The notes under the pieces were generated by a model that saw only the letters and a list, made by a program, of their open reading frames with translations, was not told the DNA's origin and searched no databases. A stretch of 64,000 nucleotides of DNA from Escherichia coli (lineage in GTDB: Bacteria > Pseudomonadota > Gammaproteobacteria > Enterobacterales > Enterobacteriaceae): assembly GCF_022846255.1 (NCBI RefSeq), contig NZ_AP025682.1; one strand, 5' to 3'. Made by a program: the position numbers and the translations under genes. Numbering within the stretch: the stretch's first letter is position 1; each line of letters opens with the position of its first letter. Shown here in pieces: positions 32,446 to 36,218 of the stretch.

Positions 32446-32467
32446 AGACTTATCAATTTCGGAAGTG
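32446..32467 (+). promoter_or_regulatory. Conserved 22-bp motif, copy A (5' region of glycosyltransferase-autotransporter operon)
   Basis: agacttatcaatttcggaagtg; 21/22 identical to 36197-36218, followed by gtaacgttac palindrome. Confidence 0.4.
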
Positions 32468-32496
32468 TATCCGGTCAGTACGTAACGTTACAGCGC

Positions 32497-33114
32497 TTAC
32501 AAAAACGTCCTGTTCATTATCCATGCAATATCATTCCGGTTTCTCAGACCGATTTTAAATATCGCCTTTTGTCGGTAGTAACACACATTGCTGTAATGTA
32601 TCTGCATACGCTTTGCAATATCACTTACAGTTTCACCGCCAAGAAGTGCATTTATCACCTGTCGCTCATTAGCACTTAAACGCTGAAATCTATACCCACT
32701 ACTTATATAGCGAGAAGGCACGGTCAGAATGCGCAGAAAAATATTTTTCAATTGATGAAAGCTTTGTGACGGAGAAATCCAGGTAAAAGGATATTTGATA
32801 TTATTCTGCCCTCCCTGATGGCCAAATAAAATGCATGGAGTCCCTCTCAGTTCGTGGCGTTCAGAATAAAGGACTGACAGATTCCACAAAAACCACAAGG
32901 CCTTCACAATCACTGATGACTCATGGCAGGTGAGATCTACCACAATGACACTCTGTTTCCCGGGGAGGTGTCTATCAGACAGAATATGCGACACAATCTG
33001 CTCCGGTGTTTCCACGGAATTAACCTGAACAGCATGTTGCCCGGCACTTTCCATCACTGCAAAAAGCCCGAGGCGGGTGTACTGACACTGACTCATCAAA
33101 AATATCTGTTTCAT
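32497..33114 (-). CDS. LuxR-type transcriptional regulator with C-terminal HTH
   Basis: 205 aa; C-terminal LSANERQVINALLGGETVSDIAKRMQIHYSNVCYYRQKAIFKIG. Confidence 0.75.
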   Translation of the reverse strand: MKQIFLMSQCQYTRLGLFAVMESAGQHAVQVNSVETPEQIVSHILSDRHLPGKQSVIVVDLTCHESSVIVKALWFLWNLSVLYSERHELRGTPCILFGHQGGQNNIKYPFTWISPSQSFHQLKNIFLRILTVPSRYISSGYRFQRLSANERQVINALLGGETVSDIAKRMQIHYSNVCYYRQKAIFKIGLRNRNDIAWIMNRTFL

Positions 33115-33584
33115 CCGTATTTTGTCAGCTCCTGAGGAGCCTGTTCATTCCGTTTTCTCGATACCATCCACTGACGTAGTTTCTGAAATTTTGTCTGTGG
33201 CCTGAGTGACTGCTTTGCTGCGGGGGCAACAGGTTCCAACTGAACATCCAGTTCTGCTCCTGAACTGGCCGGGATTTCCTGCGGATCCTGTATATCCAGG
33301 ATCCGAAGAGCGCGTCTTCGTCCCGTTGTCGGTTCGTTCTGTATGAAGCGCCTGCTGCGGATATGGTTTCGTCCCTCGTGCTCAATGTAATACAGAATAT
33401 CTTTTGCTGTTCTCTGGGTTATATGAAACTCCCGGCTGACCGCCTCAACTGTCAGTAACCTGCCGGTTCGCATCCCCCAGAAGGTCACGATGATATACAG
33501 TGGTCGAGCCTGCATGTCCTGAACACACTCAGGACAGAAAAAATGTCTCTTTATTCGTCTGCGTCTCTCAGGCATACCCGCCAC
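33111..33584 (-). CDS. CaiF/GrlA-family transcriptional regulator
   Basis: 157 aa; PLYIIVTFWGMRTGRLLTVEAVSREFHITQRTAKDILYYI collinear with recalled CaiF; 4-bp overlap with downstream LuxR gene. Confidence 0.65.
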   Translation of the reverse strand: MAGMPERRRRIKRHFFCPECVQDMQARPLYIIVTFWGMRTGRLLTVEAVSREFHITQRTAKDILYYIEHEGRNHIRSRRFIQNEPTTGRRRALRILDIQDPQEIPASSGAELDVQLEPVAPAAKQSLRPQTKFQKLRQWMVSRKRNEQAPQELTKYG

Positions 33585-33721
33585 CTGAATATCTCTCCGT
33601 CAGAAGTATGAATTAAGAAGCATTGACATCCCTCCCCCCAGTAATTACAACAAACATCTGTTGCCGCATGTGTCGGGTTATCAGTGCTGAGTAACGCGCA
33701 ATACAGGTGCACAAGAAGAGG

Positions 33722-33762
33722 ATCTGTTGTTGTCAAAATGACCCATTTTGACAACAACAGAT
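33722..33762. promoter_or_regulatory. Perfect 19-bp inverted repeat with 3-bp spacer (candidate operator or recombination core)
   Basis: atctgttgttgtcaaaatg-acc-cattttgacaacaacagat; no flanking U-tract. Confidence 0.5.
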
Positions 33763-33941
33763 TAAAAAACTAGATTTTTGCTATTGTCTGGTTTTATTTT
33801 CTTAGCTGTGTGGCGTTTTTGGCTGTTCATACTATTAATGGAGTTTTGGAGAATTCAGAAAACTGACAGACATCAATGCCATATTGTTACAGAAGGGATT
33901 TGATACGGGAGTTTTATTGATTTAAATCAAACAATTTTTAA

Positions 33942-34604
33942 TTAATTGTTGTTTGCATAACCTGTGTTTTTTAACATTTGTAACCTCAATACAGGCAGTT
34001 TACAGTTTGGGTCAAAAAGTTGCTTTTTCGCCCTTTTTGACGGCTTCCATAACCGTTCAAAGCGGGCCGAATTTGAAGCTGTATAAATCACCGTATGCCG
34101 GATATTCCGGTGTCCCAGGTAATCCTGAATCAGGCGTGTATCGATGCCGTTATCTGCCAACGCGTAACCACACCCATGTCTCAGCATATGTGGATGGACA
34201 GCAACAGCCAGCCCGGCATTTCTTCCTGCTTCAGCCAGCAAGTTATAAAAACGTTGACGGGTAAGCGGACGCCCTGATCTGGAAATAAATAGCCAGTCCC
34301 TCTCTTCTTCTGCTGCAGGCAATTTTATAGTTTCCCGGGCTTTGAGCCAGTTCCTGATACATTGTACTTCTTCAGTCAGTAAGGGATGCACGGTACTGAA
34401 GCCGTTTTTCAGGCGCCGAACGCACAGCTTTCGGGACTCGAGCTCAAGGTCAGCAAGACGTAACGAAAGCATTTCGCTGACCCTGAGTCCGTGGATAAAA
34501 GCAAGAAGAATCATGCAGGCATCACGTTCCGGGTGGTGCCCCTTCAGCACCGCCCGTAACAAAAGGCTGACTTCATGGTGAGTAAGAAATTTTCGGGAAG
34601 ACAT
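33942..34604 (-). CDS. FimB/FimE-family tyrosine site-specific recombinase
   Basis: 220 aa; HPHMLRHGCGYALADNGIDTRLIQDYLGHRNIRHTVIYTASN. Confidence 0.85.
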   Translation of the reverse strand: MSSRKFLTHHEVSLLLRAVLKGHHPERDACMILLAFIHGLRVSEMLSLRLADLELESRKLCVRRLKNGFSTVHPLLTEEVQCIRNWLKARETIKLPAAEEERDWLFISRSGRPLTRQRFYNLLAEAGRNAGLAVAVHPHMLRHGCGYALADNGIDTRLIQDYLGHRNIRHTVIYTASNSARFERLWKPSKRAKKQLFDPNCKLPVLRLQMLKNTGYANNN

Positions 34605-34733
34605 TAATCGCTCCGGTCAGATGAAACAGAGCGCTCAAGAGTGACACGATGCCCCCATCAGGCTATGGCTAAACGTGCTAAAGTCAGGAAAGCAGAATAA
34701 AACTCCGATTGCTCTTAAGAACAGTCAACTGGC

Positions 34734-35597
34734 ATGGACCCACAGGTATATCAAATGAATTTAATCCAGCAACTGGCGGGAATTATCGAAGGGAATCTGA
34801 ACAGTCCACTGTCAGTAAAAGTTCTTGCTGAACGTTCAGGCTATTCAGAACGCTGGTTGTACAAACTGTTTCAGGATGTAACCGGGATCAGTGTAGCGCA
34901 GTACATACGTCGCAGAAAACTAACACTTGCCGCTTTACTTTTGCGCCATACCAGTCGCCGGATAACAGACATATCACTAATGTATGAGTTCAGTTCGCCC
35001 CAGGCTTTTTCCCGTGCTTTCAGGCAACAGTTCAAGGTGTCACCAGTGCAGTATCGCAATGCGGATGCCTGGGATATGCAGTATGCCCAGCCCGTATTGT
35101 ACAGAACCACACCGTGCACAAAATTCAGAATGATTGAGATAGCTGAGGGCAATCATCCTTCTGTTCCAAACCTTAAAATGCCTGTGAATCTGGGAATAGA
35201 CTTTATCCATACCCAGAGCGGCGATCATTTTATTTATAACCGTAACCTTTTTGAGTCCATAATATCAATTTATGGTCCTGTTAATGAAATGTCTGACTTT
35301 ATGATTTCAGGCGAAATGATACCCTCCAGAGAAACGGATTCTGAACTAATTTATATTTTTAAAGAAATAAACAGTTTTTCCCTGCCAGAGACGCTTCTTC
35401 CTGATGGTTTATATGCCAGCCGGGAATTTACTGGGACATACAAAGAGATTTTTGATTTTCATATATATGATGCCATGGGTGCGCTGTGTATTAATAAATG
35501 TGTTATGAAAAGAGGACCTATATATACACTATTTCACAGAACAGATAATAAAAATATTATGGATATGCAATTCCTCATTCCTTGCGTAAAAATTTAA
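34734..35597 (+). CDS. AraC-family transcriptional regulator with N-terminal HTH
   Basis: 287 aa; N-terminal AraC-type HTH (..SVKVLAERSGYSERWLYKLFQ..FSSPQAFSRAFR..). Confidence 0.75.
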   Translation: MDPQVYQMNLIQQLAGIIEGNLNSPLSVKVLAERSGYSERWLYKLFQDVTGISVAQYIRRRKLTLAALLLRHTSRRITDISLMYEFSSPQAFSRAFRQQFKVSPVQYRNADAWDMQYAQPVLYRTTPCTKFRMIEIAEGNHPSVPNLKMPVNLGIDFIHTQSGDHFIYNRNLFESIISIYGPVNEMSDFMISGEMIPSRETDSELIYIFKEINSFSLPETLLPDGLYASREFTGTYKEIFDFHIYDAMGALCINKCVMKRGPIYTLFHRTDNKNIMDMQFLIPCVKI

Positions 35598-36145
35598 CTT
35601 CGCCAGACCCGATTAAAACGACCAGGATTACTGGCTGTATACAGTACAGTATGATGAATGTTCCTGTGTCCCAGATAATCCTGAATCAGACGAGTATCCA
35701 GTCCCTGATTAGCAAGAGCATAACCACAGGCGTGACGCAACATGTGTGGATGCACCTTAATTCTCAGACCCGCACGTTGACTATATCGTGCGCAGAGTTT
35801 ATAAATCCATTGTCTGGAAATTTTTTTCCCATGGCTTGACAGAAAAAGATAATCATCCTGACTACCTTTAGCGTATCTTTTTCTGATCAGGAGCCAGCGT
35901 TGCAATAGTTCTATTGTTTCTGGCTGCAATGGATGTGAAGTTGATAATCCGTTTTTCAGCCGCCTAATAAAAACAATTTTTTCAGTCATATCAAAATCTC
36001 CCAGTCTAAGGTCTATCAATTCACTGACGCGAAGTCCATGAATGTAAGTTATTTGCAGCAATGCTTTATCACGGATTTCATTGCGTGTACCCGTTATAGC
36101 ATTAAAAAAAAGCGCCCATTCGCTGTTGGTGATGTATTTACGCAT
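35594..36145 (-). CDS. FimB/FimE-family tyrosine site-specific recombinase (second copy)
   Basis: 183 aa; HPHMLRHACGYALANQGLDTRLIQDYLGHRNIHHTVLYTASN. Confidence 0.85.
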   Translation of the reverse strand: MRKYITNSEWALFFNAITGTRNEIRDKALLQITYIHGLRVSELIDLRLGDFDMTEKIVFIRRLKNGLSTSHPLQPETIELLQRWLLIRKRYAKGSQDDYLFLSSHGKKISRQWIYKLCARYSQRAGLRIKVHPHMLRHACGYALANQGLDTRLIQDYLGHRNIHHTVLYTASNPGRFNRVWRS

Positions 36146-36196
36146 ATTTCCTCCTATCAGAGTTATATGTAAATTTTACATTTTTAGATAAAAGGA

Positions 36197-36218
36197 AGAC
36201 TTATCAGTTTCGGAAGTG
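36197..36218 (+). promoter_or_regulatory. Conserved 22-bp motif, copy B (5' region of second recombinase gene)
   Basis: agacttatcagtttcggaagtg followed by gtaagcgttac. Confidence 0.4.

Follow-up and report, generated by a model that had tools for sequence, protein, structure and literature searches.

A 19-bp box conserved upstream of tibC and of a recombinase gene in the tib adhesin island of Escherichia coli, a candidate regulator site common to two promoters

Results

The stretch of Escherichia coli DNA considered here (contig NZ_AP025682.1; the whole 64,000 nt are referred to as the window) hosts a tib adhesin island, and two copies of a short sequence, hereafter called the box, reside within it, one ahead of tibC and the other ahead of a recombinase gene, rec2. 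On the minus strand, rec2 (35594-36145) encodes a 183-aa tyrosine recombinase of the FimB/FimE type (NF007370, 210 bits; Phage_integrase), and rec1 (33942-34604) a 220-aa IpuA-like tyrosine DNA invertase, also FimB-like, scoring 255 bits with NF007370, above the cut-off. Further along the same strand are tibD (33111-33584), of the CaiF/GrlA type, tibB (32497-33114), of the LuxR C-terminal type, and, both downstream of the first box, the heptosyltransferase gene tibC (30953-32173) and the autotransporter adhesin gene tibA (27817-30960). An invertible switch of the ipuS/fimS type, 276 bp long (33739-34014), is located between rec1 and tibD. The gene of an AraC-family regulator, the candidate box-binding protein, occupies the plus strand (34734-35597). 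Its start is probably at 34755, giving 280 aa, and not at 34734 as in the mechanical open reading frame call, because the homologues, also of 280 aa, begin at the MNLIQQ methionine. TibA is an adhesin and invasin of enterotoxigenic E. coli (ETEC), and its regulation is poorly understood; the functions of TibB and TibD are listed as unknown in reviews (PMC7545054, PMC8973357). No description of the box, of its probable regulator or of the tib-linked switch was found in the searchable literature, which does not mention the neighbouring recombinase and AraC-family genes in what it reports on tib. All that is shown below is computational: the repeat, how it is conserved and spaced, the AraC-family gene that occurs together with it, and the modelled fold of the encoded protein.

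The two copies, AGACTTATCAATTTCGGAAGTG (32446-32467) and AGACTTATCAGTTTCGGAAGTG (36197-36218) as read on the plus strand, are identical at 21/22 positions and directly oriented, as stated in an earlier note on this DNA, and the match extends to 24/26 when counted from 32442 and 36193. No other match with up to 3 mismatches occurs in the window, none was obtained in 100 shuffles, and simple arithmetic predicts about 0.015 pairs at 21/22 or better by chance in 64 kb. The placement of the copies in the 5' region of minus-strand genes holds as well. Copy 1, in the tibB-tibC intergenic region, is 29 nt past the tibB stop codon and 272 nt ahead of the tibC ATG (32173), and its core (32448-32466) reads ACTTCCGAAATTGATAAGT on the minus strand. 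Copy 2 is 51 nt ahead of the rec2 ATG (36145), and its core (36199-36217) reads ACTTCCGAAACTGATAAGT on the same strand.

The motif search across homologous islands proposed in the same note was carried out, and the motif is kept at both positions in related loci. Both boxes have been identified in E. coli 06-00048 (L001), E. whittamii (L044), Salmonella IncHI1 plasmids (L072), plasmid pToe17-1 (L003), an E. hormaechei plasmid (L073), Atlantibacter hermannii (L083), a Citrobacter chromosome (L085), an E. coli plasmid contig (L088) and contigs of Citrobacter sp. Cu233 (L011 and L012). The conserved core is a 19-bp sequence, ACTTCCGAAAYTGATAAGT on the transcribed (minus) strand, found at both positions in about 11 diverged lineages of Enterobacterales, with the consensus A-c-TTCCG-a-AA-t-TGATAA-g-t. 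Among 12 distinct boxes TTCCG (positions 3-7) and position 17 are invariant, positions 12, 13, 15 and 16 nearly so, and the spacer between the two recognition elements is AAAT, AAAC or GAAA. The core of copy 1 is identical or nearly identical in ETEC strain H10407, E. coli 06-00048, E. whittamii, pToe17-1, Citrobacter, the E. hormaechei plasmid and Atlantibacter, and copy 2 still precedes rec2 orthologues whose proteins are as little as 60% identical. In Atlantibacter the same A8G change is present in both copies.

Each copy had also been said to be followed by a palindrome. The sequences are there, but the second is not a true palindrome, neither is conserved, and the spacing differs. GTAACGTTAC (32482-32491) is a perfect 10-mer palindrome 14 nt from the motif, while GTAAGCGTTAC (36225-36235) has arms of only 4 bp around a 3-nt centre, and is 6 nt from the motif. 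The corresponding positions in close relatives read GTAACGGTAC in E. coli 06-00048 and the IncHI1 plasmids, and GTAATGGTAC in E. whittamii; no palindrome occurs in the homologues from Citrobacter, Enterobacter and pToe17-1. By arithmetic, again, chance alone would place about 60 perfect 10-bp palindromes in 64 kb. The palindrome was rejected as a part of the element, being unconserved. Relaxed patterns of the box itself, ACTT-N3-AA-N-TT-N3-AAGT and TTCCG-N5-G-N2-AA, retrieved no more credible sites in the window or the related loci.

The box is found at a set distance from a hexamer resembling a -10 element. The upstream regions of rec2 were aligned for nine lineages, with identities of 60-100% among the Rec2 proteins. 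Outside the coding sequence, the only columns without variation are TTCCG, a single G, AA, the first and the last T of the -10 hexamer, an A downstream of the hexamer (A104) and the T directly before the start codon (T115). The majority base reaches fractions of 0.85 (box) and 0.86 (-10 hexamer), versus 0.60 (spacer) and 0.51 (upstream). The distance from the box to the TAnnnT-like hexamer is 18 nt (19 sites, 12 distinct sequences), the exceptions being L077, a Salmonella fimbrial locus, with 19 nt, and copy 2 of the window type, with 20 nt. Past copy 1, the predicted -10 hexamer of an internal tibCA promoter is TAAACT (32424-32429, minus strand), 18 nt downstream of the box, and TAAACT, TAATCT or TAAATT are found at this same distance in 8/8 lineages examined. 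Transcription of tibCA is accordingly predicted to start near 32417, with a leader of about 244 nt. Past copy 2, the predicted -10 hexamer of the rec2 promoter is TAAAAT (36173-36178, minus strand), separated by 20 nt from the box and by 27 nt from the ATG, and a Shine-Dalgarno sequence, AGGAGG, follows it; the distance from the hexamer to the rec2 ATG is 27-28 nt across lineages.

The geometry is maintained where the surrounding sequence is not. The tibB-tibC spacer of the E. hormaechei plasmid can be aligned only at the box, which matches at 19/19 positions and is followed, after 18 nt, by TAATCT. The predicted tibC leader of the window (32174-32423) exceeds those of L085, L088 and pPKF8 by about 200 nt, and in these three loci box and hexamer are arranged as elsewhere, the whole tibB-tibC spacer measuring 126 bp. 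The extra segment of the window matches no Rfam family and does not fold in an unusual way; the fold was scored on 32160-32425, 266 nt that take in the predicted leader (z = -1.7), and no Rfam family was found within 27-38.5 kb of the window.

No good -35 hexamer is present at either box. Being 18-20 nt upstream of the -10-like hexamer, the box would overlap the -35 position, and its centre falls near -40 as reckoned from the predicted hexamer. As far as sequence can tell, this pattern typifies promoters in which a protein-binding site takes up the -35 region. Consensus sequences for IHF, Fur, FNR, CRP and sigma-E were compared by eye with the box and discarded, as none fits the invariant positions. 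A scan of one genome per species (100,044 species) for ACTTATCARTTTCGGAA yielded 68 matches, versus about 69 expected by chance according to arithmetic, and the only relevant ones are in E. whittamii and Citrobacter sp. Cu233.

The distribution of the box was compared with that of the neighbouring genes. The genes rec2 and AraC-family are convergent, and their 3' ends overlap by 4 bp (35594-35597) in the window; convergence with overlapping or abutting 3' ends was observed in all orthologous loci examined (L072, L073, L077-L079, L083, L085, L088, L090, L091). The box is present in Salmonella fimbrial loci which lack tibB (L077, L079, L091), in a locus which lacks tibB, tibD and rec1 (L078), and in L090, whose AraC orthologue shares only 45% identity. 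In turn, no box was found upstream of similarly diverged rec2 homologues without an AraC neighbour, namely those of L075 (66%), which is of the ipuB type, L076 (64%) and the second copy in L078 (61%). On these comparisons the box is seen to track the convergent rec2/AraC gene pair, also where tibB and tibD are absent. In pPKF8, which has lost the AraC-family gene and both recombinase genes, copy 1 carries 3 substitutions, in its right half. ETEC of the H10407 type have copy 1 only, as IS600 removed the AraC-family gene, rec2 and the 5' part of rec1.

Over its N-terminal 115 aa the AraC-family protein can be aligned with Rob, SoxS, RamA and MarA. The AlphaFold model of the protein, which includes a GyrI-like C-terminal domain, has a mean pLDDT (predicted local distance difference test) of 86 and a pTM (predicted template modelling score) of 0.86, and its best match in the PDB is Rob (1d5y_A, E=3e-17, TM-score 0.68 over the full length). 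The protein is thus predicted to have the architecture of Rob. In helix 3 the KWHLQR of Rob is replaced by ERWLYK, with R invariant among the orthologues; in helix 6 the Q and R of Rob are kept. From the MarA-DNA structure we take helix 3 to face the first recognition element and helix 6 the second. A changed helix 3 with a changed first element, and a kept helix 6 with a kept second element, are what one would expect of a protein binding the box.

The term of comparison for the elements is the marbox, 5'-GCAHWWWWTGYYAAA-3' (PMC6900184). Class II marboxes are forward-oriented, overlap the -35 region, and are centred between -36 and -55 (PMC12052159). Like a marbox, the box is asymmetric, about 20 bp long, with two recognised blocks spaced by about 10-11 bp, or one helical turn; its predicted orientation is toward the promoter, with a predicted overlap of the -35 region and a centre near -40, and its candidate regulator has a modelled Rob fold. 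Aligned as TCCGAAATTGATAAG it agrees with the marbox at 10/15 positions, among which the A/T spacer, TG and AA, at invariant positions of the box. With TTCCG and not GCAC as its first element, and with different helix-3 residues in the candidate regulator, the box is not a marbox, and binding by MarA, SoxS or Rob is not expected. While the marbox regulon is a chromosomal stress regulon, that of the box apparently consists of two promoters inside one mobile locus.

The switch between rec1 and tibD is bounded by 7-bp inverted repeats, TGACCCA and TGGGTCA, lying within CAAAATGACCCATTTTG and CAAAATGACCCATTTTGACAA; their core is the same as in ipuS, the switch of uropathogenic E. coli CFT073 (PMC6083910). 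In H10407 the segment 33739-34014 is inverted; once it is flipped in silico, the two sequences run colinear for 800 bp and are 97% identical. Inverted repeats, adjoining genes of the FimB family and the occurrence of both orientations in nature place the element among fimS/ipuS-type switches, and on these features it is the real target of the recombinases. The orientation is that of H10407 in 13/13 ETEC-type genomes, in which rec1 is truncated, and that of the window in 7/7 E. coli with an intact module. The distal inverted repeat resides inside the coding sequence of rec1, and in-silico inversion shortens the product from 220 to 200 aa, with a new C-terminal tail. The ipu locus has the same arrangement, its distal repeat lying within the recombinase coding sequence, and a change of the IpuA tail has been reported likewise (PMC6083910). 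The ipuA-ipuB/ipuS/ipuR-upaE and tib loci also share a LuxR-type regulator and an autotransporter adhesin downstream (PMC6083910). They differ because ipu has no AraC-family gene and no box, and ipuB is divergent from ipuA; the tib module has in addition the Rob-like gene, a CaiF-type gene and the pair of boxes.

A putative sigma-70-like promoter, TTGACA-17-TAGATT (33748-33776, plus strand; 10/12 of the consensus), is located within the switch. It is directed toward rec1 and away from tibD in the window, and toward tibD in the H10407 orientation. The direction of this promoter suggests that the switch is OFF in the window and locked ON in H10407. At the left switch junction (33722-33762) a perfect 19-bp stem with a 3-nt loop, flagged as terminator-like, is found on the strand transcribed toward tibD. 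The H10407 orientation lacks this stem, which could play a part in the OFF state. The switch also includes a perfect palindrome of the FNR/CRP family, TTGATTTAAATCAA (33917-33930), which reads TTGATTTATATCAA in H10407 and may be the CRP site of the tibDB promoter; no strong CRP site (at least 8/10) was found between rec1 and tibD. In 2011, Espert, Elsinghorst and Munson reportedly found the tibDB promoter of ETEC H10407 to be activated by CRP. That promoter belongs to the same locus as those proposed here for the box, and is activator-dependent and in control of TibA expression, as the box promoter ahead of tibCA would also be. They differ in position and in the protein involved, the tibDB promoter being upstream of tibD and CRP-dependent, the boxes lying downstream of tibB and upstream of rec2 with no CRP-like sequence.

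Discussion

The conservation of the box at both positions, at a set distance from -10-like hexamers and within surroundings that have diverged, makes it likely that the two copies are a promoter-proximal site of a common regulator, as the earlier note had proposed. Of the three regulators put forward there, the AraC-family protein, here recognised as Rob-like, fits best; the LuxR-type and CaiF-type proteins fit less well because they are absent from several of the loci bearing the box. Whether the Rob-like protein is in fact the binder is, in our judgement, an evenly balanced matter. The explanation which best accounts for the data as a whole, and which we hold to be somewhat more probable than not, is that the box is an activator site of the Rob-like regulator, shared by the promoters of tibCA and rec2. 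A transcription-factor site common to two promoters is in itself an ordinary, known kind of element.

In the model proposed, the transcription starts, the binding, its effect (activation, and not repression) and the choice of the binding protein are all inferred from the features described above. Copy 1 would be the operator of an internal tibC-tibA promoter, located downstream of tibB, and copy 2 the operator of the rec2 promoter. MarA, SoxS and Rob bind the marbox as monomers, and the Rob-like protein would bind the box in the same way, one helix-turn-helix contacting TTCCG and the other TGATAA, one helical turn apart. Once bound, it would activate RNA polymerase at both promoters by a class-II mechanism, and its GyrI-like C-terminal domain suggests that this activity may depend on a small-molecule signal. 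Such a signal would be coupled to two outputs, one being the provision of recombinase for the ipuS-like switch that precedes tibDB, the other a switch-independent transcription of tibCA, and hence of the adhesin and the glycosyltransferase.

Several observations sit uneasily with this model. The spacer of copy 2 in the window itself is 20 nt, and not 18. A simple sigma-70 scan calls no promoter at either box, which is what one expects of an activator-dependent promoter, but lends the model no positive support. The box could also be a repressor site, and not an activator site. The first element, TCCG in the box and GCAC in the marbox, differs at 3/4 positions, so that the analogy is one of layout, not of sequence. 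The assignment to the AraC-family protein is drawn from co-occurrence in about a dozen lineages, and a plasmid from Hafnia (L074) has a box and no AraC gene within 9 kb. ETEC of the H10407 type retain a perfect copy 1, and lack both the AraC-family gene and rec2; since this loss is a recent insertion sequence event, their copy 1 is uninformative either way.

A different binder has to be considered, as the box might be recognised by TibB, TibD or a chromosomal global regulator. The genes of TibB and TibD immediately precede copy 1, the core has a partial dyad symmetry (6/9 pairs) of the sort a dimeric helix-turn-helix protein would prefer, and in Hafnia L074 the box adjoins a LuxR-type gene, with no AraC gene nearby. 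Yet the box is found upstream of rec2 in L077, L078, L079 and L091, which have no TibB homologue, and L078 has no TibD either, whereas L076 has a TibD-like gene and no box. The invariant positions, moreover, are asymmetric, with TTCCG on one side and TG..AA on the other, and a monomer with two helix-turn-helix motifs fits them better than a symmetric dimer. As to a global regulator, the species-wide scan placed the box, beyond matches at chance level, only in tib-type loci, and the confinement of an element to a mobile module argues against a housekeeping protein. We regard this group of binders as unlikely.

The boxes might instead be direct-repeat recombination sites, by which a FimB-like recombinase excises or integrates the 3.7-kb block of tibB, tibD, rec1, AraC and rec2, an alternative that the earlier note had raised. 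In every tib-type locus examined direct copies do bracket a block with two tyrosine recombinase genes, an arrangement reminiscent of the attL and attR repeats around integrative elements, and the core has a weak dyad symmetry, ACTT-N11-AAGT. The recombinases, however, have a target of their own 2.2 kb away, and the box shares nothing with its inverted-repeat core. Partner sites of tyrosine recombinases must be identical at the central, or overlap, region, whereas the central base differs between the two copies (A versus G) in the window, L001, L044 and L072. Fimbrial loci with orthologous rec1, AraC and rec2 carry the rec2-proximal box only, and the distances of 18 nt to the -10 hexamer and of 27-28 nt to the rec2 ATG are properties of promoters. 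Deleted or empty sites are missing among 5426 E. coli genomes and 72,556 plasmids, a sample holding few two-copy loci; what lies to the right of copy 2 is present in only 7/5426 E. coli genomes, and the full block accompanies it in 7/7. Excision of the block is therefore very improbable. Hardly credible at all is the notion of a repeat without function, left behind by gene conversion or a short duplication, or matching by chance. In its favour, a locus holds no more than two copies, and these had been picked out by eye in the earlier note. Nevertheless, a pair of this quality is far rarer by chance than one per window, shuffled sequences gave none, and the box is kept at both positions where the flanking non-coding DNA has diverged beyond alignment.

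The shared operator acquires a broader meaning from the distribution of the module. In L087 and in the Salmonella plasmids of L077, L079 and L091, a cassette of rec2, AraC, rec1, switch and CaiF-type gene is located upstream of chaperone-usher fimbrial operons, and not of tibBCA. The adhesins joined to the module are thus autotransporters in tib loci and chaperone-usher fimbriae on the Salmonella plasmids. Tentatively, the unit made of rec2, the Rob-like gene, rec1, the ipuS-like switch and the CaiF-type gene may be viewed as a portable phase-variation cassette, in which a Rob-like protein responsive to a small molecule would activate both rec2, hence the switching bias, and the switch-independent promoter of the tib adhesin. 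If so, chemical sensing and stochastic switching would be wired through one 19-bp box. Should the box be the operator of the Rob-like protein, it would offer a direct handle on an uncharacterised family of regulators, made of 34 clusters at 90% identity, all with generic names, and would show how a chemical signal could tune the phase variation of an adhesin. The analysis also accounts for the difference between H10407 and strains with an intact module, as H10407 has lost the AraC-family gene, rec2 and part of rec1, and its switch is fixed in the opposite orientation.

Some features of the loci are worth recording. The module is found twice in L087, as an inverted duplication. In Atlantibacter (L083, 2425-3582) the sequence downstream of copy 1 encodes a fusion of the TibC N-terminal domain to an EAL domain, instead of a heptosyltransferase and an autotransporter. 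In the window, an IS3-family element (36367-37607) with 45-nt terminal inverted repeats, 80% complementary, is located about 150 bp to the right of copy 2, and yhiM lies beyond it. The Salmonella IncHI1 plasmids carry the same junction, and the island may have travelled together with this element. The segment 25466-43982 of the window is colinear with E. coli 06-00048 at only 95-97% identity, the yhiM-yhiI backbone included, so that the DNA may come from a divergent lineage of Escherichia and not from typical E. coli. In strain 06-00048 the transposase of the IS3-family element is annotated as frameshifted.

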